Assembly (NCBI GenBank): GCA_963758195.1 | Contig: CAVWUH010000002.1 | Span: 3,981,560 to 4,045,559 of the forward strand | Direction: 5' to 3' | DNA length: 64,000 nucleotides | Source of the DNA: an uncultured Acidobacteriota bacterium | Lineage (GTDB): Bacteria; Acidobacteriota; Thermoanaerobaculia; Gp7-AA8 | Shown here: positions 9,556-57,727 of the stretch, in pieces | Layout: each line of letters opens with the position of its first letter | How positions within the stretch are numbered: position 1 is the first letter of the stretch | The notes under the pieces: generated by a model | What the model was told of the DNA's origin: nothing | The model's database searches: none | What the model saw: the letters and a program-made list of their open reading frames with translations, nothing else | Program-made: the position numbers and the translations under genes

Positions 9556-9637
9556 CGGTTATCGGTTGTCGGTTATCAGTTGTCCGGGAAGCGTCGCGAG
9601 ACGTCACGGACAACGGACAACTGACACCCGATAACCG
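9556..9637. repeat. heptamer-arm hairpin, family A (GGTTGTC / ACAACCG units)
   Basis: CGGTTATCGGTTGTCGGTTATCAGTTGTCCG ... CGGACAACGGACAACTGACACCCGATAACCG. Confidence 0.8.
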
Positions 9638-9670
9638 GCACTGATACGCATCACCTATCCAAACCGTCCA

Positions 9671-10816
9671 ATGTCATATATTCGCCCCGCCATGCCGATC
9701 CCTCTTCTCGATCTCAAACTCCAGTACGCCGCCATTCGTGACGAGGCTCTTCGCGTCACCGCGGAGATCTACGAATCGCAGTACTTCATCCTGGGAAAGC
9801 GCGTCGACGATTTCGAGCGCGACTTCGCGGCTTATTGCAAGACCCCACATGCCATCGGCGTCTCGTCGGGAACAGACGCGTTGCTCGAGGCGCTGATGGT
9901 CCTGGGCATCGGCGTGGGCGATGAAGTGATCGTGCCCGCGTACTCCTTCTTCGCCACGGCCGGAGTCGTGTCGCGGCTCGGGGCGACGCCGGTGTTCGTC
10001 GACATCGACCTCGCCGACTACAACATCGATCCGAAGGCCATCGACGCGAAGATCACGCCGCGCACGAAAGCGATCATGCCGGTGCACCTCTACGGACAGT
10101 CGGCGCCGATGGACGAGATCATGGCCATCGCCGAAGCGCGCGGTCTCGCCGTGGTCGAAGATGCGGCGCAGGCGGTCGGCTGCGACTACAAAGGCCGGCG
10201 GATTGGTTCGATCGGCACGATCGGCTGCTTCTCCTTCTTCCCGTCGAAGAACCTCGGCGCCTTCGGCGACGCCGGCGCGATCACGACGAACGACGCCGAG
10301 CTGGCGCAGAAGCTCGTCGACTTTCGCGTGCACGGCATGAGGCCGAAGTATTTTCACCACTACGTCGGCGGGAACTTTCGCATCGACGCGCTGCAGGCGG
10401 CGATGCTGCACATCAAGCTGCCACTCCTCGAATCGTGGCACGAAGGAAGACGCCGCAACGCGGACATCTATCGTCGCGCTTTCAACGACGCCGGGCTGGG
10501 CGAGCGTGCCGTTCTCCCCGAGGAGATGCCGGGACGGCGGCACATCTATAACCAGTACATCGTCCGCTTCCCCGAGGGACGTGCGACGCGCGATCGCGTC
10601 ATCGAGCACCTCAGAAGTGTCTCCATCGGCTGCGAGATCTATTACCCGCTCACGTTGCCGCAGCAGGAGTGCTTCCGCGACGTTCCGGGAGCCTCCGATC
10701 GCTACCCCAACTCCGAGCTCGCCGCGGAGCAAACGCTGGCCATCCCGGTCTTCCCGGAACTGAAAGAGGAACAGATCCACGAGGTCGTGAGCGAGATCGC
10801 CAAGGCGCTGGGATGA
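9671..10816 (+). CDS. DegT/DnrJ/EryC1/StrS family PLP-dependent sugar aminotransferase
   Basis: ORF 381 aa: FILGKRVDDFERDFAAY..., GVSSGTDAL, FSFFPSKNLGAFGDAG, NFRIDALQAA. The start may instead be ATG 9692. Confidence 0.85.
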   Translation: MSYIRPAMPIPLLDLKLQYAAIRDEALRVTAEIYESQYFILGKRVDDFERDFAAYCKTPHAIGVSSGTDALLEALMVLGIGVGDEVIVPAYSFFATAGVVSRLGATPVFVDIDLADYNIDPKAIDAKITPRTKAIMPVHLYGQSAPMDEIMAIAEARGLAVVEDAAQAVGCDYKGRRIGSIGTIGCFSFFPSKNLGAFGDAGAITTNDAELAQKLVDFRVHGMRPKYFHHYVGGNFRIDALQAAMLHIKLPLLESWHEGRRRNADIYRRAFNDAGLGERAVLPEEMPGRRHIYNQYIVRFPEGRATRDRVIEHLRSVSIGCEIYYPLTLPQQECFRDVPGASDRYPNSELAAEQTLAIPVFPELKEEQIHEVVSEIAKALG

Positions 10817-10818
10817 AT

Positions 10819-10954
10819 GTTGCTGGTTGCTCGTTGCTGGTTGTCTGTGGTGTTTCGCGAGTAGGCACGGACAACGAGCTACCTATTACCGAGGTCTGAG
10901 GCTACTCGCGAGATCCCACAGACAACCAGCAACCAGTAACCAGTAACCAGCAAC
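10819..10954. repeat. heptamer-arm hairpin, family B (TGGTTGC / GCAACCA units) with a nested inner hairpin
   Basis: GTTGCTGGTTGCTCGTTGCTGGTTGTCTGTGG ... CCACAGACAACCAGCAACCAGTAACCAGTAACCAGCAAC. Inner inverted repeat TCGCGAGTAG/CTACTCGCGA. Confidence 0.8.
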
Positions 10955-10966
10955 GCCTCTCCATTC

Positions 10967-11656
10967 ATGATTCCTCTTCGCCACACGCTCGATCGCCATT
11001 CCGCACCGATTGTGAATCGCGCGCTGGTGGCGACGAACGTCGCCGTGTTCATCGCTCAGCTCTTTCTGGGATCGATGACGGAGCGGATCATCCAGACCTT
11101 CGGATTCATCCCGGCGCGGCTGATGAATCCCGCGGCGTTTCACTTTCAGGCGTGGGAAGTGGCGATCACGCTCATCACGTCGCTTTTCCTGCACGGCGGT
11201 TTCGTCCATCTCATCGGCAATCTCATTTACTTATGGGTCTTCGGCGGGGCGGTCGAGGATGGGATGGGGCACGTGCGCTACCTCATCTTCTACATCGCCT
11301 GCGGAGCGATGGGGAGCCTGACGCACACGATCCTCTTCCCAACGTCGCTCACGCCTTCGATCGGCGCGTCGGGAAGCATCGCCGGAGTGCTCGGCGCGTT
11401 TCTCGTTCTGCGCCCGCACGCGAAGATCGTCACGCTCTTTCCGCTCGTCGTCTATTGGGCGATGGCGGAGATTCCGGCCGTGCTGTTCCTGCCGGTCTGG
11501 CTGGGGATGCAGTTCTTCAACGGTTTCCTCTCGCTGCGCGCTGCCTCGGGCACCTACGAAGTCGCCGGCGTGGCCTGGTGGGCGCACGTCGGCGGCTTTC
11601 TGTTCGGCGCGATCATCGCCGTGACGGTGCGTTTATCCCGCGGCCGGCAGTCGTGA
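10967..11656 (+). CDS. rhomboid family intramembrane serine protease
   Basis: ORF 229 aa, multi-TM: HGGFVHLIGNLIYLWVFG, GASGSIAGVLGAF (GxSG), AHVGGFLFG. Confidence 0.85.
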   Translation: MIPLRHTLDRHSAPIVNRALVATNVAVFIAQLFLGSMTERIIQTFGFIPARLMNPAAFHFQAWEVAITLITSLFLHGGFVHLIGNLIYLWVFGGAVEDGMGHVRYLIFYIACGAMGSLTHTILFPTSLTPSIGASGSIAGVLGAFLVLRPHAKIVTLFPLVVYWAMAEIPAVLFLPVWLGMQFFNGFLSLRAASGTYEVAGVAWWAHVGGFLFGAIIAVTVRLSRGRQS

Positions 11657-13228
11657 GCTCTTCGTGCCCTCGGCGGCGTCTTCTTCGCGGATGCGGTTGT
11701 GAATGAGGCAGCCGAAGATGATCAGCGGAAACGCGATGAACAAGGTCAGTAGACCGTAGAGCGCCAGGCGCGTGATGCCGACGATCCGCTCGACGCGCGT
11801 CGAGGGACTGCCGGTCGTCGTGATCAGCTCCGTCGAGGGATTGAGATTCGCGGAGAGGGCCAGATAGATCTTGCGGATCTCGAGGAGGAGCTGACGCACT
11901 TCCTGGCGCGTCGCACCGATCTCCTGATTCACGACCTGCCGGCTCATGCCTCCACCAGCGCCGCCGGGATTGCGCACGAGCGCAAGAACGGAGCGATCGT
12001 ACTCCACGGCCTGCTGGACCGGAGCGATGGCCACCGCGGTCTCGCGATAGCGGTCGGCGAGCCTCTGCCGGTACTCGAAATCGACGTTGCTCGAGGTGAG
12101 CTGCATCAGGCGGTCGAGAAACGTATCGCCGACGACCGGCGTCAGCGTCTCCGTCCCGGGCTTCGCGGGTGCCTGACGTTGGACGGCGGCGGTGCTGTCC
12201 GGCATGTCGGTCTGCTCGCGTTGGCCCGTGTACATGGCCATCGCTTTTCGCGCGGCTTCGGTTGCCTGAATCTGCGCGTCGAGCTGACGCTCGTCGTACG
12301 AGACCTGCGTTTCGAGGAAGTGAATGGTGGTGGCGCGGTCGTCGAGCTGACTCGCCGCGATTCCGTGAACCAGTGGCTCGAGACGAAAGCGGACGAGGTC
12401 ATCGAGGCGGATGCGGATGTCATTGAGCGACAGACCATCCTGCTTCGAACGCACCAGTTCCGCCGCGGGCAAGGCGCGCAGGACATCGATGTTGGCCATC
12501 ACGCGCAGGATCTTGGCGCGCAGCATCTCGGTGGCGATGATCGGGTTGCTCTCTTCGATCCCCGTCGCCGTGACCATGTCCGGCGAAAGAACGGGAACGC
12601 GGTATTCGAGAACGTGCTGTTCGTGTGAGACGAATTCGGCCCATTCGCGCAGGATGTCGTGCATGGTCTTGCGAACGACGACATCCGGAATCGGATCATT
12701 GTTGCCGGTGTGCAGATAGTTGAGTCCGTACTCGGACTTGCTAAGCGTGGCCAGCTTCAGCTCGTACTCGTGCTGAATTCGTTCGCGATCGGCGGGCGTG
12801 AGCCGCGGATCGGAGAGTCGCGATTGAAAGTAGCGGGAGAGCGCTTCCTGCGCGGTATTCGACTCCAGCACGAAGACCGAGCGCGCAAATTTGCTGAAGG
12901 GCGTGAAGCGGGAGAGGTTGTTCTGGTTGTACGCCTTCAGAAGTACCGGCATGGAAATGATCTCCGCGCTCGAGAACTTCGTTCCGTTGGGATACTCGCC
13001 GCGTTCCGCGCCTTCGAACTCCAGCCGGAAGGTCATGGTCGTCACGCGCTGCGAAGGCGCATAGATGTACACGGCCAGTGCAACGATGACATAGCCGATG
13101 GCCACTGCTGCCAGCGCGAGACCGATGATCGGACCGTAAGCGCCGAGAACCTTGAAAAAATGGCTGACGGAGACCGGCGGCTCGAGATGCTCGGCGGGTG
13201 GACTCTCGTGGTGCAGCGGATCAGGCAT
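11633..13228 (-). CDS. polysaccharide chain-length-determinant-like (Wzz/PCP-type topology) membrane protein
   Basis: ORF 531 aa. One N-terminal TM (GPIIGLALAAVAIGYVIVALAVYIY), one C-terminal TM (LALYGLLTLFIAFPLIIFGCLI), and a long helical middle region. No kinase domain. EPS context. The call rests on topology only. Confidence 0.5.
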   Translation of the reverse strand: MPDPLHHESPPAEHLEPPVSVSHFFKVLGAYGPIIGLALAAVAIGYVIVALAVYIYAPSQRVTTMTFRLEFEGAERGEYPNGTKFSSAEIISMPVLLKAYNQNNLSRFTPFSKFARSVFVLESNTAQEALSRYFQSRLSDPRLTPADRERIQHEYELKLATLSKSEYGLNYLHTGNNDPIPDVVVRKTMHDILREWAEFVSHEQHVLEYRVPVLSPDMVTATGIEESNPIIATEMLRAKILRVMANIDVLRALPAAELVRSKQDGLSLNDIRIRLDDLVRFRLEPLVHGIAASQLDDRATTIHFLETQVSYDERQLDAQIQATEAARKAMAMYTGQREQTDMPDSTAAVQRQAPAKPGTETLTPVVGDTFLDRLMQLTSSNVDFEYRQRLADRYRETAVAIAPVQQAVEYDRSVLALVRNPGGAGGGMSRQVVNQEIGATRQEVRQLLLEIRKIYLALSANLNPSTELITTTGSPSTRVERIVGITRLALYGLLTLFIAFPLIIFGCLIHNRIREEDAAEGTKSSRLPAAG

Positions 13229-13346
13229 TACGGTGGCTTACCTCATCAAAATTGATCGTCACAGCATCCCAGCGCGACGAACGCGCGTCAAGGAGGCCGA
13301 ATCGCGGAGAGCCGGCCGGTGATGTCATTGCCCTCTTATGATCTAA

Positions 13347-13367
13347 TGTGTTCAACAGTTGAACACA
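13347..13367. promoter_or_regulatory. perfect 10-1-10 palindrome abutting the MarR start codon (candidate operator)
   Basis: TGTGTTCAAC-A-GTTGAACACA ends 1 nt before ATG 13369. It lies in the divergent spacer between the Wzz-like and MarR-like genes. Confidence 0.45.
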
Positions 13368-13368
13368 C

Positions 13369-13713
13369 ATGAGCCACGTCCTCACCGATGAAGTGCGCTA
13401 TCGACTCCTGACGCATCTGGCCGAACATCCCTCCGCCAGCCAGCGCGAGCTCGCCTCCGATCTCGGGATCAGTCTCGGCAAGGTGAACTACTGCCTGCAC
13501 GCGCTGATGGAAAAAGGGCTTGTAAAAGCGCGCAACTTCAAGAACAGCAGGAACAAGTCTGCTTACGCGTACATCCTCACGCGCAAGGGACTGGAAGAGA
13601 AGCTCGACGTGACGTACGCGTTCCTGCGCCGCAAGATCGCCGAATACGACAACGTCGCGGCGGAGATCGAGCGCCTCACCGCCGAGGTGAGGACGATGAC
13701 CGAGAAACAGTAG
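13369..13713 (+). CDS. MarR-family, EPS-locus-associated winged-helix transcriptional regulator
   Basis: ORF 114 aa: SQRELASDLGISLGKVNYCLHALMEKGLVKARNFKNSRNKSAYAYILTRKGLEEK. Pattern recalled from MarR-type regulators next to EPS/exosortase loci. Confidence 0.75.
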   Translation: MSHVLTDEVRYRLLTHLAEHPSASQRELASDLGISLGKVNYCLHALMEKGLVKARNFKNSRNKSAYAYILTRKGLEEKLDVTYAFLRRKIAEYDNVAAEIERLTAEVRTMTEKQ

Positions 13714-13719
13714 TTGTTT

Positions 13720-13753
13720 GCAGATCGCAGTTTGCAGATCGCGGATCGCAGTG
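13720..13753. repeat. tandem heptamer tract (GCAGATC-like x5), no inverted partner found
   Basis: GCAGATC GCAGTTT GCAGATC GCGGATC GCAGTGG, immediately after the MarR stop. Confidence 0.6.
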
Positions 13754-13890
13754 GTGCGTTGCGGCTGCGGGACTTGCAGGCTGGAAGGAAGGTTCGGAAT
13801 CGCCCCGGACCGAAGACACGATGACGGCGACCAGCTCGAGACGCTTTTCGATCGGTTCGTCAACCGACGGGGGCGAAGCCCGCGCGCGCG

Positions 13891-13977
13891 CGGTTGTCGG
13901 TGATCGGTTGTCGGTTGTCCGCGATTCATCGTATCGCCGGAGATCGCAGACAACCGACAACGGACAACCGACAACGG
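13891..13977. repeat. heptamer-arm hairpin, family A
   Basis: CGGTTGTCGGTGATCGGTTGTCGGTTGTCCGCGAT ... ATCGCAGACAACCGACAACGGACAACCGACAACGG. Confidence 0.8.
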
Positions 13978-14002
13978 TTCTCGAAGAGAAGAAACAGAAA
14001 TC

Positions 14003-15013
14003 ATGAAAGTGCTCGTCACCGGCGCCGCCGGATTCATCGGCTCCCACACCGCGCAACGTCTTCTCGAGCGGGGAGACGAAGTCCTCGGCGTCGACAACCT
14101 CAACAACTACTACGACGTCACGCTCAAGGAAGCGCGGGTCGCGCGGCTGCGGGCGCATCCGGCGTTCCGTCTCGAGCGCCTCGACATCGCCGATCGCGAC
14201 GGCATGGCCGCGCTCTTCGCGCGCGAGCAACCGGCGCGCGTCGTCCATCTCGCCGCCCAGGCCGGCGTGCGTTACTCCATCGACAATCCTCACGCCTACA
14301 CCGACAGCAACGTCACCGGCTTTCTCAACATCCTCGAGGGATCACGCCACAACGGCGTCGAGCATCTCGTCTTCGCTTCCACCAGCTCGGTCTACGGCGC
14401 GAATACGATGCAGCCCTTCTCCGAGCACCAAAACGTCGACCATCCGGTCTCGCTCTACGCGGCGACGAAGAAGGCCAACGAGCTGATGGCTCATACCTAT
14501 GCGCATCTCTTCGGCGTCCGCACGACCGGCCTGCGCTTCTTCACCGTCTATGGACCGTGGGGCCGCCCGGACATGGCGCTCTTCAAGTTCACGCGCGGCA
14601 TCCTCGCCGGCGAAGCGATTCCGGTGTTCAACAACGGTCAGATGATTCGCGACTTCACCTACGTCGACGACATCGTCGAAGGCGTCGTGCGCACGCTCGA
14701 TCATCCGGCGCAGCCTGATCCCGAGTGGAACGGCGATGATCCCGATCCCGCAACGAGCGATGCGCCGTACCGCGTGTACAACATCGGTAACAACCAACCG
14801 GTCCTGCTGCTCGACTGCATCGCCATGCTGGAAGAAGAGCTCGGACGCAAAGCAAAGATGGAGTTTCTTCCGATTCAGCCCGGCGACGTCGTCTCCACGA
14901 TGGCCGACGTCTCGGAGCTCGAGCGTGCGGTTGGTTTCCGGCCCAGCACGCCGCTGCGCACGGGCATTGCTCGATTCGTGAGCTGGTATCGCGAGTACTA
15001 CGGAGTCCAATGA
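14003..15013 (+). CDS. NAD-dependent nucleotide-sugar 4-epimerase (UDP-glucuronate / UDP-HexNAcA 4-epimerase family)
   Basis: ORF 336 aa: [56 protein letters not shown]. Confidence 0.85.
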
Positions 15014-16365
15014 TGGATGCAGCGATCAAAGCCGGAGAGCCGGCCAACAGCGAGCTCCTCGACTCGTTTCTGAAGCGCGTCGAAACGCGCGAAGCCGTCG
15101 TCGGCGTGGTGGGACTCGGCTATGTCGGCCTCCCGCTCGTCCTTCTTTACGAGGAAGCCGGATTCTCTGTCGTCGGCTTCGACGTCGACGCCGAGAAAGC
15201 GGAGCGCCTCACCGCCGGCGACTCGTACATCCGCCATATCGGCCCGGAGCGCGTGCGCAAGGCATTCGTCGGCGGGAAAGCGCGCGCGGTCTCCGACTTC
15301 AGCGGGATGGCAGAGTGCGACGCGATCATCATCTGCGTCCCGACCCCGCTCGGCGCGCATCGCGAGCCCGACCTCAAGTACATCCGCATCACCGCCGAGA
15401 CGATCGCCAAACATCTTCACCGCGGTCAGCTCGTCGTTCTCGAATCGACGACCTATCCCGGAACCACTCGTGAAGAACTGCTGACTCGCTTCGAAGCGGC
15501 CGGTCTTCGCTGCGGGACCGATTTCTTTCTCGCGTTCTCTCCCGAGCGCGAAGACCCGGGCAACGAGAAGTTCAACACGCGCAACATCCCTAAGGTCGTG
15601 GGCGGCGTCGATCCTCCCTCGCTGCGCGCGGCCGCCGCGCTTTACGGCGCGGCGATCGATCAGGTCTATCCCGTCTCCTCCGCGGAAGTCGCCGAGTCCT
15701 CGAAGCTGCTCGAGAACATCTTCCGCGCCGTGAACATCGCCCTCGTCAACGAGATGAAGATCATCTTCGACCGCATGGACATCAACGTCTGGGAAGTGAT
15801 CGAGGCAGCGAAGACGAAGCCCTTCGGCTTCATGCCCTTCTATCCCGGCCCCGGCCTCGGCGGTCATTGCATTCCGCTCGATCCGTTCTATCTGACCTGG
15901 AAGGCCGCCGAGTACGGCGTCTGGGCGAAGTTCATCGAGCTTGCCGGCGAAGTGAACACCTCGATGCCACGCTACGTCGTCGCGAAAGTCGCCGACGCCG
16001 TCAACGCCGACGGCAAGAGCATCGTCGGAGCGAAGGTCCTCGTGCTCGGGCTCTCGTACAAGGCGGACATCGACGACGATCGCGAGTCCCCTTCCTTCGA
16101 GCTCATCGAGTTGCTGCAGGAGCGCGGCGCGATCGTGTCGTATTGCGATCCCTTCGTCCCCGTCGCGCGCAAGGGCCGCAAGCACGACCTCGGACTAGCA
16201 TCCGTAGCATGTACCGCCGAGGAGTTCGGAAAGTACGACGCGGTCCTCGTGTCGACCGCGCATTCGGTGTTCAAGGATCAGTCGCTGTACGCAAACGCGC
16301 GGCTCGTGATCGACACACGGAATGTCGTGCATGATCTCCACGGACCGCGCATCGTACGAGCGTAG
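15010..16365 (+). CDS. nucleotide-sugar 6-dehydrogenase (UDP-GlcNAc/ManNAc dehydrogenase family, TviB/WbpO/WecC-like)
   Basis: ORF 451 aa: [56 protein letters not shown] overlap with the upstream epimerase. Confidence 0.85.
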
Positions 16366-16393
16366 TTTTTCCATTCTGAGCGAAGCGAAGTGC

Positions 16394-16550
16394 GTCTCTG
16401 TGTAGCGCTGGCCGCCCTCGGCCGGCGGCGCGCGCCGAGAACGAGATCGTCCCATCCTTCGAAATGGTGCAGGCAACGTCGGCGGCAGAGGGATGTGGGC
16501 GTGGCGTTTGCGCGAGAGGACGGCCGAGGCGGCCATCACTACACAGAACC
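16394..16550. repeat. hairpin repeat family F copy (preceded by a CATTCTGAGCGAAGCGAAG half-motif)
   Basis: GTCTCTGTGTAGCGCTGGCCGCCCTCGGCCGG ... CGGCCGAGGCGGCCATCACTACACAGAACC. A family-B heptamer half-arm CAGCAACCAGCAACC follows at 16571-16585. Confidence 0.8.
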
Positions 16551-16592
16551 TGAGATCGACCGAAACCACTCAGCAACCAGCAACCGAAACCT

Positions 16593-17651
16593 ATGCAACG
16601 CAAGAAAGCGCTCATCACCGGAATCACAGGCCAGGACGGCTCGTATCTGGCCGAGCTTCTGCTCGCCAAGGGCTACGAGGTGCACGGCGTCGTGCGCCGC
16701 TCGTCGTCCTTCAACACGCAGAGGATCGACGCGATCTATCAGGATCCGCACGACGAGGATCGTCGCCTCTTTCTGCACTTCGGCGATCTCAACGATGCCT
16801 CGTCTCTGAATCGCATTCTGCGCATCGTCGATCCCTCCGAGATCTACAACCTCGGCGCGCAGAGTCACGTGAAGGTCTCCTTCGACACGCCAGAGTACAC
16901 GGGCGATGTGACGGGGCTCGGTGCCGCGCGGCTGTTGGAAGCGATTCGTGAGCTGCAGATCCGGCCGCGTATCTACCAGGCGTCGTCTTCCGAGATGTTC
17001 GGCAAAGTCGAGGAAGTGCCGCAGAGCGAGCGCACCCCGTTCTATCCACGCAGCCCGTACGGCGTGGCCAAGGTTTACGCGTATTGGCTGACCGTCAACT
17101 ATCGCGAGGCCTACGGTCTTTACGCCGTGAACGGCATCCTCTTCAATCACGAATCGCCGCGTCGCGGTGAGACGTTCGTCTCGCGCAAGATCACGCGCGC
17201 CGTGGGACGCATCGCCGAGGGGCTGCAGGATCGTCTTTATCTCGGCAACCTCGACGCGCGGCGTGACTGGGGCTACGCGAAGGATTACGTCGACGCCATG
17301 TGGCGAATGCTTCAGCAGGACGAGCCCGACGACTACGTGATCGCCACCGGCGAGACGCACACCGTTCGCGACTTCTGCCAGCGTGCATTCAAGCGCGCCG
17401 GCATCGACATCGAGTGGCAGGGGAGTGGCCATGCCGAGATCGGCGTTGAGCGCGGTTCGGGACGCTCGCTCGTGGAGATCGATCCGCGTTACTTGCGCCC
17501 CACCGAGGTGGATCTGTTGCTGGGTGATGCGAGCAAAGCGAAGGCTCGGCTCGGATGGACTTCGTCCACGAGCTTCGACGAGCTCGTCGACATCATGGTC
17601 GATCACGACCTCGAGCTCGCGCGCGACGAAGCACACTTGAAGAACCGCTGA
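16593..17651 (+). CDS. gmd: GDP-mannose 4,6-dehydratase
   Basis: ORF 352 aa: [72 protein letters not shown]. Confidence 0.95.
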
Positions 17652-17654
17652 CTC

Positions 17655-18620
17655 ATGAGCAACGCCTTCTGGAAGGATCGCCGCGTCTTCATCACCGGGG
17701 GAGGCGGTTTCCTCGGCGGATTTCTACGCGCTCGGATCGAACGCGAGAATCCGGCGGAGATCCTCACGCCGCGCGCCACGGAGCTCGACCTTCGTGAGCC
17801 GCGGGCAATTCGCGACTACCTCCAAGCGCACAAGCCCGATCTCGTGATCCATGCCGCGGCCGTCGTCGGCGGCATCGGTGCGAATCGAGTGCATCCCGGC
17901 CGCTTCTTTTACGAGAACGCGGTGATGGGCATTCATCTCATCGAGGAATCGCGCCGCGCGGAAGTCGCGAAGCTCGTCTGCCTCGGCACCATCTGCGCGT
18001 ATCCGAAGTTCACTCCTGTTCCGTTCCGCGAGGATTCCTTGTGGGACGGCTATCCCGAAGAGACGAACGCGCCGTACGGAATCGCCAAGAAAGCGCTGCT
18101 CGTGCAGTTGCAGGCCTATCGCGATGAATACGGCTTCAACGGCATCTTCCTTCTGCCCGTGAATCTCTATGGTCCGCGCGACAACTTCGACCTCGAGACC
18201 AGCCACGTGATTCCGGCGATGATCCGCAAGTTCATCGAAGCGGAAGAATCGGGCGCGCACACCGTGACGCTCTGGGGCGACGGCTCGCCGACGCGCGAGT
18301 TTCTTTACGTCGAGGATGCGGCGGATGGCGTGGTGCGCGCTGCCGAGCTCTATGACGGAGCGGATCCCGTGAACCTCGGCCGCGGGGAGGAGATCTCCGT
18401 TCGCGATCTGGCCACACTCATCGCCGAGAAGACCGGGTTCCGCGGCGAGATCGTGTGGGACACCACGCGACCGAACGGACAGCCGCGGCGCATGCTCGAC
18501 ACGACGCGCGCCGCGCAACTCTTCGGCTTTCGCGCGGGAACGTCCATGGATGTCGGCCTGGCCAGGACGATCGAGTGGTATCGAGCGCATCGCGCCGAAA
18601 CCTTGGAGCCACGGCAGTGA
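17655..18620 (+). CDS. fcl: GDP-L-fucose synthase
   Basis: ORF 321 aa: [57 protein letters not shown]. It immediately follows gmd. Confidence 0.9.
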
Positions 18621-20244: not shown

Positions 20245-20248
20245 ATCT

Positions 20249-20340
20249 GTTGCTGGTTGCTAGTTGCTGGTTGTCTGCGGATCTCGGTGGAATTGGATTG
20301 TTCGCGATGCCCCGCAGATAACCAGCAACCAGTAACCAGC
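20249..20340. repeat. heptamer-arm hairpin, family B
   Basis: GTTGCTGGTTGCTAGTTGCTGGTTGTCTGCGG ... CCGCAGATAACCAGCAACCAGTAACCAGC. It fills the rfbF-rfbG spacer. Confidence 0.8.
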
Positions 20341-20348
20341 CACTAATC

Positions 20349-40066: not shown

Positions 40067-40070
40067 AATC

Positions 40071-42172: not shown

Positions 42173-42188
42173 TCGAAACGCACCCCTT

Positions 42189-42292
42189 GTCATCCCGAGC
42201 GTCGTGCGAGGGACCTGGGCGGGTGTGTGGCACGAGGCTCGAGTTGCGCGCCGCCCAACCACCCAGGTCCCTCGCTCGACGCTCGGGATGAC
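42189..42292. repeat. hairpin repeat family H (GTCATCCCGAGCG...GAGGGACC arms)
   Basis: GTCATCCCGAGCGTCGTGCGAGGGACCTGGG ... CCCAGGTCCCTCGCTCGACGCTCGGGATGAC. A single family-A arm GACAACTGACAACCGACAACC (42318-42338) follows just before ATG 42343. Confidence 0.8.
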
Positions 42293-42342
42293 ATGTTGAT
42301 TTCTCGAGACATCGCGCGACAACTGACAACCGACAACCATTC

Positions 42343-48989: not shown

Positions 48990-50213
48990 ATGCGGATCCT
49001 CTGGATCGCCCAGTGGTTCCCTCCCGACCTCGGCGCATTACCGGCACGCATCACGGAAATGGCGAGCGTGTGGGTGGCCGAGGGGCATCAGGTCACGGTC
49101 CTCACCGCATTTCCACACCATCCGCTGGGTGAAGTTCCGCCGCGCTATCGCGGCCGTTGGGTCGTCCGCGAGAAGTACGGCGAGATCGACGTCGTTCGCT
49201 GCTGGCTGCTCGCGCTTCCCAATCGGCGGATGTGGCAACGGACGCTCTGCCAGGTGTCGTTCGGCATCACGGCGCTCCTCCTCGGCATCTGGCGCGCGGG
49301 AAAGCCCGACGTCGTCGTCGTGAGCTCGCCCCCGTTCTTCACCGTTCCCGCGGTCTGGCTCCTGGCGCGCATCAAACGCCGGCCGCTCGTCTTCGAAGTG
49401 CGCGATCTCTGGCCCGCGGTCTTCGTCGAGATGGGCGTGATGAAGCGCGGCCTCGCGTATCGCATCCTCGAATCGATGGAGGAGTTCTTCTATCGCGCCG
49501 CGGCGCGCGTGATCGTCGTGACGCGCGCGTTTCGCCAGGATCTGATCAGCCGCGGCGTCGACGCGAACAAGATCGGCGTCATCCCGAACGGCGCCGACAT
49601 CGACATCTACGGCGGCGATGACGCTCGCCCGCGCTTTCGCGAAGCGCTCGGCGGCAACGGCAAGTTTCTCGTCACCTTCGTCGGAACGCACGGAGTGGCG
49701 ACGGGCCTCGATCAGATCCTCGACGCAGCTCAGATCCTGAACGACGACGCGCGCTTCACGTTCGCCTTCGTCGGCGAAGGAGCGGAGCGCGATCGGTTGA
49801 TCGAGTCCGCGCGCTCACGCGGCCTGACGAATATCCTGTTTCATCACGCCGTGGCGAAGGAAGACGTGCGCGACGTCTACGCGTCGTCCGATCTTTCGAT
49901 CGTCTGCCTGAAGCCCGTGCCGTTCCTCGACAAGTTCATCCCCTCGAAGATTTTCGAGATCATCGCCAGCGGCACGCCGATCATCGCCGCCCTCGGCGGC
50001 GAGGCGGCCGACATCGTGCGCGAAGCGGGTCACGCCGTCGTTCCCGCCGGCGACGGCGCCGCAATCGCGCGCGAGATCCGCGCGCTCGCCGAGAATCCCT
50101 CGCGGATCGAAGAGATGAAGCGCCGCGGCCGCATCTCCATCGCCGAGCACTTCGATCGCCGAAAGTTGGCGAGGGAGTATGTCGAGCAGTTGACTGGGAT
50201 CAGTAGACGGTAG
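48990..50213 (+). CDS. family 4 glycosyltransferase, WbuB/WcaI-like
   Basis: ORF 407 aa: MRILWIAQWFPPD, FEVRDLWP, FVGTHG.A.GLDQ, PSKIFEI.ASG.P. The stop codon TAG lies inside the first family-J heptamers. Confidence 0.8.
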   Translation: MRILWIAQWFPPDLGALPARITEMASVWVAEGHQVTVLTAFPHHPLGEVPPRYRGRWVVREKYGEIDVVRCWLLALPNRRMWQRTLCQVSFGITALLLGIWRAGKPDVVVVSSPPFFTVPAVWLLARIKRRPLVFEVRDLWPAVFVEMGVMKRGLAYRILESMEEFFYRAAARVIVVTRAFRQDLISRGVDANKIGVIPNGADIDIYGGDDARPRFREALGGNGKFLVTFVGTHGVATGLDQILDAAQILNDDARFTFAFVGEGAERDRLIESARSRGLTNILFHHAVAKEDVRDVYASSDLSIVCLKPVPFLDKFIPSKIFEIIASGTPIIAALGGEAADIVREAGHAVVPAGDGAAIAREIRALAENPSRIEEMKRRGRISIAEHFDRRKLAREYVEQLTGISRR

Positions 50214-50265
50214 ACGGGTGACGGGGGACGTTCGTGGGTTGCGCAAGCGTTCCCATTGCACACAA
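50202..50265. repeat. heptamer-arm element, family J (GTAGACG units; core GGGGACGTTCGTGGGTTGCGCAAGCGTTCCC)
   Basis: GTAGACG GTAGACG GGTGACG GGGGACG, then a core homologous to 53405-53435. Confidence 0.7.
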
Positions 50266-50266
50266 A

Positions 50267-50356
50267 GGAGGGCGGGCTTATAGCCCGCCGATTCTTTTGG
50301 GTGGAGGGGGACCGGTCCCGCCCGCTCAAAGTCGGCGGGCCATAAGCCCGCCCTCC
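50267..50356. repeat. repeat family E copy
   Basis: GGAGGGCGGGCTTATAGCCCGCCG ... CGGCGGGCCATAAGCCCGCCCTCC, between convergent genes. Confidence 0.8.
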
Positions 50357-52287
50357 TAGGAATCCATCCCTTTCGTCGTCTTCAGGATCGCCGCGGCGTC
50401 GACGACGTAGGTGCTGCCGTAGGCGCGGACCTGGAGGCGGGGCTCGGGGATGGAGACGGACGACTCTTCGGCGAGAACGTCGCGATCCCAGGAGTTGATC
50501 GGCGTGAGCTCGATGCGCATCTGGCGGAGCGGGATGCCCATCGTGTCGCACTCTTCGATGATCGTGCTGCGGCGTCCGTCGTGGAGTTTGGAGGTCGAGA
50601 CGAGGACTTCCTGCACCGCGTGGTTCTCACAGACTTCGCGCAGCCGGTCGCCGGCGTAGACGCGCAGGCCGTGAACGACGCGGCCGACTTTCTTCGGATC
50701 GTCGTCCACGAGCGCCACCGGTTGATAGCCGAGGTCGGGATTGTTGAAGATCTCGCGGAGCAGCAGCTCACCGGCGTCGCCCGCGCCATAGATCACGATC
50801 GGGCGGCCCGCCAGCGCGCGCGGAACGGCGAGGAGCCGGCGCGCCACGCGGAAGGCCATGCGGCTCGAGGTGATCAGCATGAGCAGCAGCAGAACGTCGA
50901 GCAGGAACACTTCGCGCGCGAACTCGAACTTGCGGAACGTGAGCAGGATCGTGACCGTGCTCGCGGCGGAAGCGATGATCGTCGACTTCGTCACGCCGAC
51001 GAGATCGTGAACGCTCGTATAGCGCCACAACCCGCGGTAGACGCCGGTCGCGAGGAACACACCGGCCTTGATCGCCACGATGATCGGCAGCGTGCGGATC
51101 ATCATCATGCAGTTCGGATCGGTCGGATCCATCCGTCCGAAGCGCAACGACCAGGCCGCGTAATACGCGATGACGATCAGCCCCGCGTCGAGCAGCGTCT
51201 CGAAGATGCGCCGCTTGTACGACAGATCGACGAGGAACGTCACCAGAGGGCGCTTGCCGAGATCGGTGTTCGGTGGATAGACCTTGACGCCCGCGAGATA
51301 CGCGCCGGTGAGCGTCAGCAGGATCGTGAAGCCGAGGATGGCCACGACGCTCTCGTACAACGCCAGCGACCGCACCTGCGTCGAGAGAAACCCCGAGATC
51401 GCCGCCAGCGAGTAGAGCAGCCACACCGCGCGGCGCTCGCTCAGACCTAGCGCCACGAGACGATGCGACGTGTGATCGCGGCCGCCCTGCGAGGCCGAGC
51501 GGCCGGAGAGCTTGCGCAGGAGCGTCACGAACGTCGTGTCGAAGATCGGGATCACCAGCGTCAGCACCGGCACGGCGATGACCGGCAGGAAGCTGCGCGT
51601 GCGACCGCTCGTCGTGGTGAGCAGCGCGGTGCTGGCGAGGAAGAAGCCGATGAACATCGAGCCGCAGTCGCCCATGAAGATCGACGCCGGCTGCGAGTTG
51701 TAGATCAGGAATCCGCACAGCGACGCCGCGAGAACGGCGATGACCGTTCCCTCGACCATCTGGCCGAGCGAGAAGAAGTTGATGGCCAGGAACACGGATG
51801 CGATCGCGGCGACGCCGGCCGCGAGACCGTCCATGTTGTCGAGCATGTTCAGCGCGTTCGTGATGCCGACGAGCCAGAACACGGTGATCGCCGAGTTGAA
51901 CAGCCCGGACGACGTCCAGGGCAGCACGAGCCCGGCGTAGACGACGATCGACGCGGCGATGATTTGCACGACGAGCTTCTGATACGGCTTGAGGTTGTAG
52001 ATGTCGTCGATGAGGCCGAGCAGGAACAGCAGCGCGCTGGCCGGGATGATGGCGTGCGTGAGATCGCTCGGCGTGTCGAGCGTGAACAGCGAAACGGCGG
52101 CGACGGAGATGAAGATCGCCGTTCCGCCCAGCAGCGCGGTCGGCTTGCTGTGCCAGCGGTCCTTCTTCGGCGCGGCCACCATCCCCGTCGCACGCGCGAT
52201 GCGGGCCACGAGTGGCGTGAGCAAAGCGGTGACGATCAGCGACAGCAGCGCCGGATGCCACACCTCGGGACGGGTGAACGCGCTCAT
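50356..52287 (-). CDS. WecA/MraY-family (GT4) polyprenyl-phosphate HexNAc-1-phosphate transferase fused to a 4-TM + Rossmann-like module resembling the N-terminus of CapD/WbpM/PglF proteins
   Basis: ORF 643 aa. N half: GLIDD, NA.NM.DNMDGLA, NS.PA.IFMGD.GS. C half: TM segments, then RPIVIYGAGDAGELLLREI...YQPVALVDDDPKKVG..V.GLRV. No dehydratase domain follows. Confidence 0.75.
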   Translation of the reverse strand: MSAFTRPEVWHPALLSLIVTALLTPLVARIARATGMVAAPKKDRWHSKPTALLGGTAIFISVAAVSLFTLDTPSDLTHAIIPASALLFLLGLIDDIYNLKPYQKLVVQIIAASIVVYAGLVLPWTSSGLFNSAITVFWLVGITNALNMLDNMDGLAAGVAAIASVFLAINFFSLGQMVEGTVIAVLAASLCGFLIYNSQPASIFMGDCGSMFIGFFLASTALLTTTSGRTRSFLPVIAVPVLTLVIPIFDTTFVTLLRKLSGRSASQGGRDHTSHRLVALGLSERRAVWLLYSLAAISGFLSTQVRSLALYESVVAILGFTILLTLTGAYLAGVKVYPPNTDLGKRPLVTFLVDLSYKRRIFETLLDAGLIVIAYYAAWSLRFGRMDPTDPNCMMMIRTLPIIVAIKAGVFLATGVYRGLWRYTSVHDLVGVTKSTIIASAASTVTILLTFRKFEFAREVFLLDVLLLLMLITSSRMAFRVARRLLAVPRALAGRPIVIYGAGDAGELLLREIFNNPDLGYQPVALVDDDPKKVGRVVHGLRVYAGDRLREVCENHAVQEVLVSTSKLHDGRRSTIIEECDTMGIPLRQMRIELTPINSWDRDVLAEESSVSIPEPRLQVRAYGSTYVVDAAAILKTTKGMDS

Positions 52288-53347: not shown

Positions 53348-53489
53348 GAGTTGGCGGTTGGCAGGAGCGAGACCCGAAGCGGAGTGGACAGGGGACAGGG
53401 AACAGGGGACGCTCGTGCGTTGAGCAAGCGTCCCCTGTGGCCTGTCTACCGTCTACCGGTCAGTTCGTGTCTCCGCCAACCGCCAACGC
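53348..53489. repeat. nested heptamer-arm hairpins: family C outer arms, family J inner element
   Basis: GAGTTGGCGGTTGGCAGG ... [GGACAGG GGACAGG GAACAGG GGACGCTCGTGCGTTGAGCAAGCGTCCCC TGTGGCC TGTCTAC CGTCTAC C] ... CTCCGCCAACCGCCAACGC. Confidence 0.8.
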
Positions 53490-55127: not shown

Positions 55128-56231
55128 GCACCACCGCACCGAGCGATCTCAGCGCAACCGCCGTCATCCAGATGATCGCCGCGGGTGCTTATCCACGCGA
55201 CGTCGTCACCACGATCGCCCGCGGCTTCATGCCGCTGGCGCAGGAAGATCTCATCGGCGTGCTGGCCTATCTCGTCAGCGCTGGTGACGGGGAGATCTCC
55301 GCGCTTGCGCGGACCTCGCTGCACGACGTTCCGATACGGGCGATGTTCGAGTACGCGTCGAATGAAGCGATCGCCGGCGATCAGCTCATCCGCCTCGTCG
55401 ACGTGGCAACCGACACCCTCGTGCTCGAGGCGCTCATCCGCAATCGCGCGGTGCCGGACTCCTCGATCGCCGAGCTTGCGCTGCGCGCCGAGGCGCGGCT
55501 GCAGGAAGTCATCGTCATCAACCAGGCGCGCATTCTTCGCGCGCCGGAGATCCTCGACGCTCTTCTCGAGAATCCGAATCTGACGCCCGACGCCCGCCGG
55601 CGGGCGATGGAGACGAAGGAAGAGTTCTTCGAGAAGAAAGCGCGGCTGCTGCTGATCGAACAGGAGCGGGCGGCGGAGGCCGAGAGAGAGCCGCTGATCG
55701 TCGATGCGCCGCTCGAGGAGATCGCCGACTTGCTCGAGAAGGCCGCGGAGCTCGGCGACGAGGTCACGCCGACGGTGGTGACGATCACCGACTCCGATCG
55801 CATGGATCCGCAGAAAGCGGCGGTGTGGGCGCGCATTCAGTTCATGACGATCAGCGAGAAAGTGCAGCTCGCGTTCAAGGGCGATCGCACGATCCGCATG
55901 ATCCTGGTGCGGGAGCGGAACAAGCTGATTTGCGCGGCGGTCATGCGCAATCCTCGGATGACGGAGACGGAAGTGGAGAGCATCGCCGGCATGCGCAACG
56001 TGGAGGAAGAGGTCCTTCGCCTCATCGCCTTGCGGCGCGACTGGATCAGCAAGTACAGCATCATGCTGGCGCTCCTCCGCAATCCGAAAGCGCCCATCGG
56101 GGTTGTCCTGCCGTTCGATCAATCGTTTAACCTTACGTGATTTGAAAGGGTTGAAGGACGACAAGGGAGTACAGGCAGTCGTCCGCGACATGGCGAGAAA
56201 GTCGTATACGTCTCGAACCCAGAAAGAATGA
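55124..56231 (+). CDS. hypothetical alpha-helical repeat protein, frame-disrupted near 56117
   Basis: ORF 55124..56140 (repeated ..RNP....... motifs). After VLPF the sensible continuation INRLTLRDLKGLKDDKGVQAVVRDMARKSYTSRTQKE* is in the +1 frame. It ends in an ATGA overlap with the next gene. Confidence 0.5.
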
Positions 56232-56876
56232 AGGTCAACTACTACGAGATTCTGGGCGTCGATCGATCGGCTAGCGAGCAGGAGATCCGCGAGAGATTCC
56301 GGAAGCTCGCCCGTGAGAATCACCCTGACCGCTACCGGGCAACGACAAGGCCGGAGCGGAGAGGATGTTCCAGACCCTGACCGAGGCCTCAACGTCCTGA
56401 CGAATCCGGCCAAGCGTAAACAGCACGACAGCGAGATCGCCGGCGGCGGCGGGCGCGGTCCGGCCGATTTCACTCAGGTGGCCAAGGCCTACCTGAGCAA
56501 GGGTGTGAAGGCTTTCAAGGAAGGCGACTGGAGCACGGCGTACGAGAACTTCGACATGGCCGTGAAGCACAACCCGCAGGATGCGAAAGCGTTTCACTAT
56601 CTCGCGCTGGCCGCGGCACGCATTCCGTCGCACACGCGCCAGGCCATGCAGGCCATCGAAACCGCCGTTGCAGCGCGAGCCGATGAATGCGTTGTTCCTC
56701 AAAGATGCCGGCCAGATCTGCCAAGCGCGCCGGCCTGCTCGCGAAAGCGGAGCGCTATTTCGAGATGGCCCTCAAGTGGGACGCCTCGAACGTCGAGGCT
56801 CAGGCTGGCACTGGCTGAGCTTCGCAGCCAAGGAGGCAGCCGGAAAGGCGGATTCTCGCTCTTCGGGAAACGCTGA
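56228..56876 (+). pseudogene. DnaJ (J-domain) + TPR protein with about 5 frameshifts
   Basis: MKVNYYEILGVDRSASEQEIRERFRKLARENHPDRYR | GNDKAGAERMFQTLTEA | LNVLTNPAKRKQHD...TPR-like KAFKEGDWSTAYENFDMAVKHNPQDAKAFHYLALAA... | REPMNALFLKDAGQIC | KRAGLLAKAERYFEMALKWDASNVEAQAG | LAELRSQ...GKR*. Each bar marks a frame change (~56338, 56387, 56673, 56722, 56810). Confidence 0.7.
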
Positions 56877-57642
56877 TGCTCATGGACGTCAAGGCATAGG
56901 GACTGACGCACGTCGGCCGGCAACGGCAGCACAACGAGGATGCGTTCCTCGTGGAGAAGGAGGCCGGCCTCTTTCTCGTCGCCGATGGCATGGGCGGCCA
57001 CGCCGCCGGCGAGATCGCGTCGCGCATCGCTGTCGACTCCATCTCCGAGTTCATCCTGCACACGAAGGAAGACGACGGCACCTGGCCGCACGCCTACGAC
57101 GAGCATTACTCGCGCACGACCAACCGGCTGATGGCCGCGCGTGCGCATGGCCAACACACGCGTGCTCGAAGCGATGCGCAAGGATGCGCGGCTGCGCGGC
57201 ATGGGCACGACCGTCGTCGCCTGTCTGGCCGAGGACGAGACGGTGTCCGTCGCGCACGTCGGCGATTCGCGCGCCTATCTCATCCGCGACGGAGCTCTCT
57301 CGCGGATCACGAACGATCACTCCTGGGTCTTCGAGCAGGTTCAGGCGGGGATGCTCACCGAGGCCGAGGCGGAGAAGCATCCTCTGCGCAACGTCATCAC
57401 CCGCGCCCTCGGCGGCGCGTCTGCAGGTCACGCCCGACGCGTCGGAGATCGCAGCGAAACCGGGCGACGTCTTCCTGCTCTGTTCGGACGGCCTCACGGG
57501 CATGGTCCCTGAAGATGAGATTCTTCGACTCGTCACTTCGAGCAACGGCGACCTGGAAGAGCCTGCCAGCGATCTGATCGACGCGGCGAACGAGCGGGGC
57601 GGCCTCGATAACGTCACCGCCGTCCTCGTCAAGACTGTTTAG
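56876..57642 (+). pseudogene. PP2C-family Ser/Thr protein phosphatase with an in-frame TAG and 2 frameshifts
   Basis: [48 protein letters not shown] (TAG 56897-56899) ... | VRMANTRVLEAMRKDARLRGMGTTVVA...VAHVGDSRAYL...ITNDHS...RNVITRALGG | LQVTPD...GDVFLLCSDGLTGMV...GGLDNVTAVLV*. Frame changes at ~57140 and ~57420. Confidence 0.8.
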
Positions 57643-57646
57643 AAAC

Positions 57647-57727
57647 GAGTTGGCGGTTGGCAGTTGGCGGTTGGCAGTAGACGCCAACCCGGCTGCTTGC
57701 TCCCGCCAACTGCCAACCGCCAACTGA
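57647..57727. repeat. heptamer-arm hairpin, family C (CAGTTGG/CGGTTGG ... GCCAACT/GCCAACC units)
   Basis: GAGTTGGCGGTTGGCAGTTGGCGGTTGGCAG ... CCGCCAACTGCCAACCGCCAACTG. Confidence 0.85.

Follow-up and report, generated by a model that had tools for sequence, protein, structure and literature searches.

The 64-kb window analysed here (the whole stretch of 64,000 nucleotides, from contig CAVWUH010000002.1 of an uncultured Acidobacteriota bacterium) carries a histidine operon and a gene for tyrosyl-tRNA synthetase (TyrRS), followed by a long polysaccharide-biosynthesis cluster. Several of its spacers are occupied by hairpins whose two arms are inverted tandem arrays of short units, mostly of 7 nucleotides (nt). 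A first-pass annotation had sorted these elements by unit sequence into families A, B, C and J. They exist at the coordinates that it gave: period-7 arrays were recovered at every claimed arm by Tandem Repeats Finder (TRF) and by an independent scan. The unit consensus NCAACCR proposed for families A-C also holds. We found three copies of family A, two of B, two of C and 3.5 of an octamer family that had been overlooked. All of the window copies are intergenic.

Hairpins of the window

Nine period-7 arrays were found in the window by TRF and our own scan against 0.3 expected from second-order Markov shuffles, which is about 30 times the chance level. Similar shuffles predicted 0.1 period-8 arrays, and five were observed. 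The family A hairpin pattern had four matches, with none expected. The ten complete hairpins, to which no strand was assigned, fold at -50 to -90 kcal/mol, with z scores of -7.9 to -14.7 relative to dinucleotide shuffles, and none of 200 shuffles folded as stably.

The family A hairpin at 9556-9637 consists of (CGGTTRT)x4, a core and (AYAACSG)x4, and lies between a divergent pair, a hypothetical gene (8386-9528, - strand) and a DegT aminotransferase gene (9671-10816, + strand). The second copy, A2 (13891-13977), stands between a leader motif (13850-13885) and the start of an epimerase gene (14003). The third (39983-40066) is located between the stop codon of an asparagine-synthase-like gene (39978) and the start of a methyltransferase gene (40071), both identified by Pfam. 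They fold at -50.2, -53.2 and -50.3 kcal/mol, with z scores of -8.7, -7.9 and -8.7, respectively. In family B, the hairpin at 10819-10954 fills the whole spacer from the DegT stop (10816) to a rhomboid start (10967). Its left arm is (GTTGCTG)x3.5 and its right arm (CAGYAAC)x4.5, and they enclose, in this order, the A-like inner unit GTTGTCTGTGG, an inner, nested palindrome and CCACAGACAAC (-89.5 kcal/mol, z -14.7). The other family B copy, 20249-20340, likewise occupies the spacer between an NTP-transferase stop (20244) and an epimerase start (20349) (-55.7 kcal/mol, z -8.7).

A family C hairpin of GTTGGCR x4 and YGCCAAC x3 begins 5 nt past the stop at 57642 (57647-57727; -59.8 kcal/mol, z -9.0). 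Family C units, GTTGGCG and CGCCAAC, also form the outer arms of a nested element in a divergent spacer (53348-53489; -90.3 kcal/mol, z -8.8), inside which GGACAGG x3 and CCTGTSY plus CGTCTAC x2 surround a 31-nt core. The same core recurs in family J at 50202-50265 on the + strand, where the left-arm G-rich units GTAGACG x2 and GGTGACG are followed by the 31-nt core stem-loop. As annotated, the core is common to 50225-50255 and 53405-53435, with agreement at 27 of 31 positions. The element at 50202-50265 falls short of a complete tandem-armed hairpin: only an inner 9-bp stem pairs (z -1.7) and the GTAGACG units are partnerless. These units overlap a glycosyltransferase stop codon (50213) in a convergent spacer. 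Together with the divergent positions of 9556-9637 and 53348-53489, this spacer contradicts the view that the elements are confined to co-directional spacers.

The octamer family has units ACGCGGAG/CTCCGCGT. Its first copy (57975-58060) reads TTTCAC(GCGGAGAC)x3.5, loop, (TCTCCGYG)x3, TGAA, and folds at -64.8 kcal/mol (z -10.6). The second (60180-60258; -58.9 kcal/mol, z -10.7) is flanked by an HD/GAF protein gene, with its stop at 60170, and by the next gene, at 60300. In the third (61892-61997; -88.8 kcal/mol, z -13.7), the octamer part (61910-61980) is enclosed by another unique palindrome (61892-61909 / 61981-61997), so that nesting of elements is seen here as well as at 53348-53489 and 10819-10954. 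When the three copies were aligned with their flanks, they had precise common ends, TTTCAC...GTGAA. The half copy (63690-63718, + strand) comprises the C-rich arm only, 5' of a gene starting near 63761. The ends of the complete copies (TTTCAC...GTGAAA in 57975-58060, 60180-60258 and 61910-61980) resemble parS halves (TGTTTCAC|GTGAAACA) separated by tandem arms; this resemblance is probably due to chance.

Unpaired arrays were also present on the + strand. A tandem-only G-rich tract of GCAGATC/GCGGATC (13716-13753), directly 3' of the stop of a MarR-like gene (13713), is kept in the relative L116 and decayed in L114. Single C-rich arms were found 7 nt 5' of the start of a GDP-mannose dehydratase gene at 16593 (CAGCAAC x2, 16571-16585) and 4 nt 5' of the start at 42343 (GACAACY x3, 42318-42338). 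A further heptamer tract (43496-43527: CCACCGC x3, CAACCGC, CAAC) is in frame within the open reading frame (ORF) 42343-44472, where it encodes STAHRPPPTANS, the linker from the ADH_zinc_N domain to the GFO_IDH_MocA domain. The tract looks like a C-rich arm of family C and occupies the site at which a start codon would stand ahead of the second domain.

The starts at 10967, 14003, 16593, 20349, 40071 and 42343 all lack a Shine-Dalgarno sequence and have the context A(A/T)TCATGA after C/A-rich sequence, which suggests initiation independent of Shine-Dalgarno pairing in this lineage. The leader motif next to A2, CGGTTCGTACACCGAAGGGGGCGGAGCC, is a small hairpin with a G-rich tail. The window and six relatives have it conserved 5' of the polysaccharide cluster's first epimerase gene, with sites at 13850-13885 in the window, 5420-5455 in L114, 17710-17745 in L117, 10610-10645 in L118, 14700-14735 in L119 and 8750-8785 in L128. 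Hairpin A2 is missing from L119, L124 and L128, in which the motif runs directly up to the ATG. A NusG paralogue (PF02357) is encoded just 5' of the motif in L117 and L119, and the motif may recruit a specialised NusG/RfaH-like antiterminator.

Distribution, polarity and turnover

We scanned 185,579 species-representative genomes with the family A pattern GGTTGTCGGTT-N15-45-GACAACSGACAAC and obtained at least 113 loci, which form the pattern-selected sample (882 kb). The protein-selected sample, which is unbiased for unit sequence, comprises 80 loci with relatives of the window DegT protein, seven syntenic loci and the window (701 kb). Close relatives of this DegT-like aminotransferase are named Thermoanaerobaculia or Acidobacteriota. 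In the protein-selected sample we found 26 heptamer, three octamer and one nonamer hairpins, built from at least 17 different heptamer units. These 30 hairpins bear out the existence of a class with fixed architecture and variable units. The pattern-selected sample gave a similar picture: among the matches listed, inverted pairs of tandem arms numbered 111 at period 7, ten at period 8 and four at period 10 (125 in all, four period-4 pairs having been excluded as noise), and direct pairs were few. The preference for 7 nt (26 of 30 and 111 of 125) thus stood, but not the strictness claimed for it, as periods 8, 9 and 10 have identical architecture. Period 7 is dominant, not exclusive. Most of the apparently single, unpaired arrays were the arms of degenerate hairpins, so a classification of unpaired arrays by flanking genes was uninformative.

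The GACAACC hairpin was present in at least eight phyla. Among the matches listed, Thermoanaerobaculia metagenome-assembled genomes (MAGs) were the majority, and one MAG, DASYLL, had at least 14 loci with the strict family A pattern. The other taxa among these matches were Blastocatellia, Pyrinomonadaceae, Saprospiraceae, Lewinella, Chloroflexia, Planctomycetota, Poribacteria, Schekmanbacteria, Desulfobacterales and Gammaproteobacteria, together with the isolates Flavobacterium aquicola and Hymenobacter frigidus. The architecture was identical in all of them, and in several only a few bases separated the end of the C-rich arm from an ATG. Cores varied from one phylum to another. The GACAACC family of Thermoanaerobaculia has a common inner stem, GTTGTCTGTG...CACAGACAAC, across many loci and MAGs. 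A nucleotide comparison of the window with the pattern-selected loci (at least 113) found no shared DNA, and a metagenome DNA pattern anchored in the rhomboid gene had no match. Two viral contigs carried the G-first family A pattern and none the reversed pattern; with only two such contigs, a phage vector is not indicated. The loci L039 and L073 (Desulfobacterales bacterium HSG2) have very long arms of at least ten units per side, with serial blocks of the variants TGCCGGT, CGTCGGT, TGTCGGT / GGACAAC, TGACAAC. Arms are evidently able to expand far past the 3-5 units of the window copies.

In every complete window copy the G-rich arm comes first, as had been noted. The accompanying idea that this is an orientation relative to the downstream start codon does not stand, because the reverse complement of [G-rich]n-loop-[C-rich]n keeps the same form. 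G-first is an intrinsic polarity of the palindrome and a property of the whole class. In the protein-selected sample it was observed for 24 of 26 heptamer hairpins and all four with longer units (28 versus 2). In the pattern-selected sample, among the matches listed, the G-rich arm was first in 121 cases and the C-rich arm in five, the latter mostly period-4 noise. The gene contexts among the matches listed (27 ++, 23 --, 17 divergent and 15 convergent) were roughly in genomic proportions.

Turnover was most visible between the DegT stop and the rhomboid start, a spacer that we extracted from 34 distinct relatives. Seven of them had no element (0-26 nt), and one had a weakly folding 60-nt spacer (-17 kcal/mol), also without an element. 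Fifteen had a tandem-unit hairpin, with at least 12 different units: GTTGCTG, GTTCCGG, GGCCGTT, ACAGCGG, CGGTGCT/CGGTTGT, GCGAGTT, GTTGTCG, TCGGTAG, CTCTYAG, GGTTGGCC and the octamers AGGCTCAG and GAGTCGCA. Only the C-rich right arm, (CGCCAAC)x5, was present in one relative, and unrelated palindromes resembling repetitive extragenic palindromic (REP) sequences occupied the spacer in the remaining ten. The hairpin base in these spacers is 0-6 nt past the stop and 0-19 nt ahead of the start. The same operon spacer, next to a flanking protein 70-95% identical, thus contains a dozen units, other palindromes or nothing, which makes it a clean natural experiment. Architecture, period preference and G-first polarity persist through all of the unit replacement.

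Similar replacement was found at other orthologous spacers. The divergent spacer 5' of DegT had, depending on the relative, family A units, GGTTGCT, AGATAGC, GAATGCA, ACGAGGT or the octamers GAGTCNCA and CACAGCTG; the ortholog of the 9556-9637 spacer was a decayed A copy, GGTTGCT units, a short two-unit hairpin or octamer hairpins. At the position of 20249-20340, L116 has GGCAGTA/TACTGCC units instead and L114 a decayed copy. The convergent TyrRS spacer of the window has a REP pair; that of L117 has a plain terminator, that of L119 a nonamer GTGGACNTY hairpin and that of L116 a GGTTGCT hairpin together with a canonical terminator that is distinct from it.

Unit number also varied, so that both kinds of variation proposed as a check, presence or absence and unit number, were found among relatives. 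Between close relatives the arms changed by whole units: 85 nt in L143 versus 78 nt in L144, a single 7-nt step, and 77 nt in L177 versus 112 nt in L158 with an identical loop. In L162 and L170, the outer and the inner arrays both differ. Arrays sometimes take in the stop or start codon (L162/L170, L146). Both arms switch unit together, as in GTTGCTG/CAGCAAC of the window versus GTTCCGG/CAGGAAC of L114. The same family with the same inner stem recurs in several spacers of one genome (GGTTGCT three times in L116, GAATGCA twice in L148).

The spacers are shared with other palindromes. The window has at least three further palindromic repeat families without tandem units. A REP-like family, GGAGGGCGGGCTTATAGCCCGCC, forms inverted pairs in two convergent spacers (8257-8376 and 50266-50357). 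The family GTCATCCCGAGCG...GGGACCTGGGCGGGTG, with 47-nt arms, was found at 42188-42293 in the window, at 16620-16746 in L116 and in the DegT-rhomboid spacers of L147 and L165; as it occupies different spacers in relatives, several kinds of palindrome compete for the same sites. The palindrome TCTGTGTAGCG..GGCCGCCCTCGGCCG has two copies, at 16385-16555 and at 2466-2585, the latter apparently inside or at the edge of a hisF/hisH-like ORF region. The REP family GCACAGACAAGAGTGTCTGTGC lies 3' of DegT as single copies or inverted doublets in L152, L155, L157, L163, L164 and L166. Its stem CACAGACA/TGTCTGTG also serves as the inner stem in the GACAACC hairpins of Thermoanaerobaculia, a hint that this REP family and the tandem hairpins are linked.

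Interpretation and rival explanations

We consider the elements to be dispersed, genome-specific families of intergenic palindromes with slippage-prone tandem arms, similar to REPs, bacterial interspersed mosaic elements (BIMEs) and REP doublets forming hairpins (REPINs), and which, once transcribed, probably form mRNA stem-loops. We give this reading a probability of about 0.5. The comparison with REP/BIME/REPIN is made because the elements are multi-copy, occur in any intergenic context, are replaced and nested, and use the same spacers as ordinary REP-like palindromes. Non-coding spacers are colonised whatever the orientation of the genes around them, and a comparison of close relatives shows gain, loss and replacement of complete elements at one and the same spacer. 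The arms of the elements grow and shrink by whole units, and the unit types stay complementary between arms. In this unusual build, each arm consists of 2-8 head-to-tail units of 7 nt (less often 8-10 nt), G-rich on the 5' side and C-rich on the 3' side of either strand, with a short variable stem-loop at the centre. Unit number would change by replication slippage, for which 7 nt would be the favoured prokaryotic unit size, and homogenisation between the arms would accompany this whole-unit slippage. Families would spread within a genome by a transposition- or conversion-like process, and the elements would be tolerated or exploited in the spacers that they reach.

When transcribed, an element would give a stem-loop of 25-45 bp that may punctuate operon mRNA, because the base of the hairpin adjoins both the stop and the start. 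It could act as a barrier to 3' exonucleases, as a substrate of RNase III or as a mask over a G-poor leader without a Shine-Dalgarno sequence, opened only by the ribosome terminating at the stop codon. REP sequences are reported to serve as 3'-exonuclease barriers, to attenuate transcription and to stall ribosomes when less than about 15 nt from the stop (Newbury 1987; Espeli 2001; Liang 2015). By analogy, these functions, and RNase III processing as in hmw1A of Haemophilus influenzae, would fit the stop/start geometry. We also compared the two strands of co-directional copies. The sense strand folded better in 22 of 44 cases and the antisense strand in the other 22, and each had 90 G-U pairs. 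A specific optimisation of the transcribed strand was therefore dropped, and the dynamics look DNA-level and strand-symmetric. An RNA role is still compatible with this symmetry, because rapid homogenisation would erase such a signal, although the comparison takes away what would have been positive support for it.

Several points weigh against this reading. No transposase domain was detected in the 20 scanned proteins of the 64-kb window. Target-site duplications (as the first-pass annotation had noted) and terminal signatures were not seen at the elements: the three aligned octamer copies have no duplicated flank, and none was seen for families A-C. At corresponding positions of the two arms, variant units coincided no more often than by chance (1338 matches against an expectation of 1331, P = 0.23), so the check on arm covariation was negative and position-specific compensatory evolution is not claimed. 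Every role at the RNA level is something that we infer. The G-first polarity would most simply reflect a filter that keeps G-rich, start-codon-rich sequence off start codons, and it is also seen in the few convergent spacers, where such a filter should not act. Finally, the unit GACAACC is found, around unrelated cores, in eight or more phyla, which the simple horizontal spread of a single element does not explain.

This cross-phylum recurrence hints at a sequence-specific factor or constraint. It is conceivable, though we think it improbable, that G-first tandem hairpins are the footprint of a dedicated cross-phylum system. A mobile or polymerase version, that is, a hairpin-targeting element or reiterative polymerase, may write 7-9-nt units and then their snap-back complement. 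Alternatively, a conserved trans-acting reader (RNase III or a cold-shock-domain or S1-type protein) may use the hairpins for intercistronic punctuation in bacteria that rely little on Shine-Dalgarno sequences. If true, such a system would account for the near-universal polarity and the preferred period, and also for the presence of identical units, namely GACAACC, GTTGCTN and TCTCCGYG, across Acidobacteriota, Bacteroidota, Chloroflexota, Planctomycetota, Poribacteria and Desulfobacterota.

One could instead suppose that the hairpin was selected as an intercistronic RNA device, a purpose-built operon punctuation to which the DNA dynamics are secondary. The leader would be masked until a terminating ribosome melts the base (translational coupling), and/or RNase III would uncouple the stabilities of the cistrons. 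A hairpin base within 0-6 nt of the stop and 0-19 nt of the start agrees with this idea, as do the 3' arm that stands in place of any Shine-Dalgarno sequence before the A(A/T)TCATGA starts and the single C-rich arrays just 5' of starts in the window (16571, 42318 and 63690). Stems of 25-45 bp also match established RNase III substrates. Arrays before starts are known from Beggiatoaceae, Cyanobacteria and Bacteroidetes as well (PMC4679880), and the hmw1A heptamer hairpin provides an experimental precedent (PMC12721329). However, stability and G-U content have no sense-strand bias, unit order is uncompensated between the arms, and about one third of the copies, among the matches listed, lie in divergent or convergent spacers. 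Moreover, no specific device is required at the DegT-rhomboid spacer, since 7 of 34 relatives are element-free and 10 of 34 have unrelated palindromes. On balance we regard this account as possible but doubtful. At the opposite extreme, the hairpins might be neutral by-products of mutation in situ, arising with no dispersal from 7-nt slippage and templated (quasi-palindrome) repair of short inverted repeats. This would suit the 7-nt steps in arm length, the arrays with stop or start codons built in (L162/L170, L146), the very diverse units and the strand symmetry. Heptamers are the commonest long simple sequence repeats (SSRs) in prokaryotes, an excess attributed to polymerase slippage (Mrazek 2007, as cited in PMC4679880), and the suggested mechanism that reads period rather than sequence was not demonstrated. 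Neutral slippage does not predict the G-first polarity, nor one family with identical inner stem and ends in several spacers per genome, nor identical units across phyla, and we find it an unlikely explanation.

The tandem units could also be read as iterated sites for a DNA- or RNA-binding protein, of the IHF/HU type or of a cold-shock-domain or S1 type, with the inversion reflecting symmetric binding. The 7-nt period equals the footprint of a cold-shock domain, which is about 7 nt, and the presence of GACAACC/GATAACT-type units in many phyla would suggest a conserved reader. MacGregor proposed S1, Csp or CsrA for the TAACTGA repeats (PMC4679880), and Aklujkar et al. read the Geobacter pairs in this way (PMC2700814). 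Given 17 or more unrelated units among close relatives, the presence of several families per genome and free unit swaps at one spacer, no single sequence-specific protein fits, and binding-site arrays seem quite improbable. Very stable stems might alternatively stop or pause RNA polymerase at gene ends as terminators or attenuators without a U tract ("I-shaped"). The stems of -50 to -90 kcal/mol, their beginning right past stop codons and the copies between convergent genes are in line with this. But the lack of a U tract on the sense strand was confirmed: within 10 nt 3' of the complete elements on the + strand, nine of ten have one to three T, with six after 61892-61997. A terminator scan of 8000-21500 called none of the four elements in that range, and canonical intrinsic terminators were rejected on these grounds. 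Many copies lie within evident operons, 0-19 nt from the next start, or between divergent genes, and in L116 a hairpin and a separate canonical terminator share one spacer. We consider the I-shaped version very improbable.

Other candidates were rejected. The units are contiguous, 7-10 nt long and arranged in two inverted blocks, unlike the 24-48-nt direct repeats of a CRISPR array, with unique spacers of comparable length. For integron attC sites the core-site order is reversed, and the neighbouring genes have ordinary housekeeping or polysaccharide roles. RecBCD Chi-like arrays would explain nothing, as either polarity gives one correctly oriented arm to an enzyme arriving from either side. 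G-quadruplexes, for which an array would need at least four runs of three or more G, were not supported either, as GGTTGTC, GTTGCTG, GTTGGCG and ACGCGGAG have no GGG run and only GGACAGG/GGGGACG at 53386-53410 comes near. The family C unit CCAACCGC could pair with GCGGUUGG of 16S rRNA (Escherichia coli sequence), but in the ribosome this stretch is already base-paired within helix 45.

Comparison with known systems

REP, BIME and REPIN sequences are extragenic imperfect palindromes, multi-copy in a genome-specific way and nestable, which lie at operon junctions and in any orientation, vary in presence among strains and, as mRNA stem-loops, stabilise upstream cistrons. REPs have a conserved tetranucleotide on their 5' side and are accompanied by a gene for a REP-associated tyrosine transposase (RAYT), an IS200/IS605-type Y1 transposase; tandem arrays do not make up their arms (Higgins 1982; Gilson 1991; Nunvar 2010; Bertels and Rainey 2011). 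The elements described here share with them the short extragenic imperfect palindromes, the many dispersed copies and the variability between relatives, but differ in the slippage dynamics of their tandem arms. A conserved flanking tetranucleotide was not seen across the families. Like MITEs (miniature inverted-repeat transposable elements), they are small, non-autonomous and intergenic, with inverted ends and hairpin folds, whereas the insertion-sequence-derived terminal inverted repeats and target-site duplications of MITEs were not seen.

Tandem heptamers have been noticed repeatedly since 1990, as short tandemly repeated repetitive (STRR) sequences, TAACTGA repeats, GGGAATC arrays and the Geobacter "global regulator sites". 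The STRR heptamers of cyanobacteria were reportedly described by Mazel in 1990. Direct repeats of (GATAACT)n lie just 5' of starts in Beggiatoaceae, Cyanobacteria and Bacteroidetes, and only one indirect repeat was found among 170 TAACTGA repeat sets within the BOGUAY genome (MacGregor 2015; PMC4679880). STRR and TAACTGA repeats resemble our elements in being intergenic tandem heptamers near starts in sense orientation, with 7-nt indels and a patchy distribution across phyla. When read as (GATAACT)n, TAACTGA is one base from the family A arm variants GACAACT/GATAACC. Each window arm taken singly is such an array, but the inverted pairing exceeds that definition, as STRR and TAACTGA repeats are mostly single direct arrays and not hairpins. 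In Nostoc, a preprint reports that heptamer arrays near start codons affect expression (10.1101/2022.06.06.494920). A heptamer SSR hairpin in the 5' untranslated region of hmw1A in H. influenzae is processed by RNase III, and its structure and transcription affect expression and repeat-number change (Rapun-Araiz et al. 2025; PMC12721329). There, too, a tandem heptamer array is one arm of a long mRNA hairpin. The hmw1A case differs in being a single locus of pathogen phase variation, in which the pyrimidine-rich array comes first and the opposite arm is a non-repetitive G-rich tract.

Paired arrays are closer. In Xanthomonas, Rehm et al. (2015; PMC4692102) counted 70-75 inverted pairs per genome in which arrays of the heptamer GGGAATC converge; the mode is about 4 copies. 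Some 90% are intergenic, and at conserved sites Xcc and Xac differ in the length and sequence of these repeats; they were studied as formers of G-quadruplexes and i-motifs, and no function was found (PMC4692102). We read the convergent G-rich arrays as the same G-first polarity. The GGGAATC units have G-runs, whereas the window units GGTTGTC, GTTGCTG, GTTGGCG and ACGCGGAG have no serial runs of three or more G, and G-quadruplex formation therefore cannot be the general principle.

In Geobacter metallireducens, Aklujkar et al. (2009; PMC2700814) listed three classes of repeats paired on opposite strands: four tandem GTTGCTYN units (24 pairs), three tandem TCTCCGTS[Y] units (21 pairs) and five tandem MTYCTGA units (eight pairs). 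These pairs stand at variable distance and are intergenic, for example between proB and proA; they do not occur in G. sulfurreducens and were guessed, without test, to be IHF/HU sites (PMC2700814). The likeness extends to tandem arrays of 3-5 units of 7-9 nt on opposite strands, intergenic position and multiple copies. As far as the consensuses given there can be compared, GTTGCTYN is close to the window family B unit GTTGCTG, and TCTCCGTS[Y] to the octamer arm TCTCCGTG/TCTCCGCG. Geobacter belongs to another phylum, its first class is octameric whereas window family B is heptameric, and polarity, turnover and cross-phylum spread were not analysed there. Inverted pairs of this form (about 3-5 tandem units of 7-9 nt on opposite strands, within about 150 nt) comprise ten window copies, the 30 protein-selected hairpins and, among the matches listed, 125 pattern-selected ones.

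The statement that the elements belong to no described class was thus only partly right. Rfam has no family at gathering thresholds for them, with only chance eukaryotic miRNA precursor hairpins below threshold, and literal repeat strings retrieved nothing relevant from the searched literature; paired tandem repeats had, however, been published for Geobacter and Xanthomonas. The kind is already on record, yet without a name, a catalogue entry or an explanation. Such elements break short-read assemblies and mislead gene callers in high-GC genomes, and resources of the Rfam type do not include them. The units of window families A, C and J differ from the published GTTGCTYN, TCTCCGTS[Y], MTYCTGA and GGGAATC. 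So far as the searched literature shows, four points are new compared with these systems: members in Acidobacteriota, several unit families side by side in a single genome, GACAACC hairpins that recur across phyla, and the replacement of units at orthologous spacers with the polarity kept.

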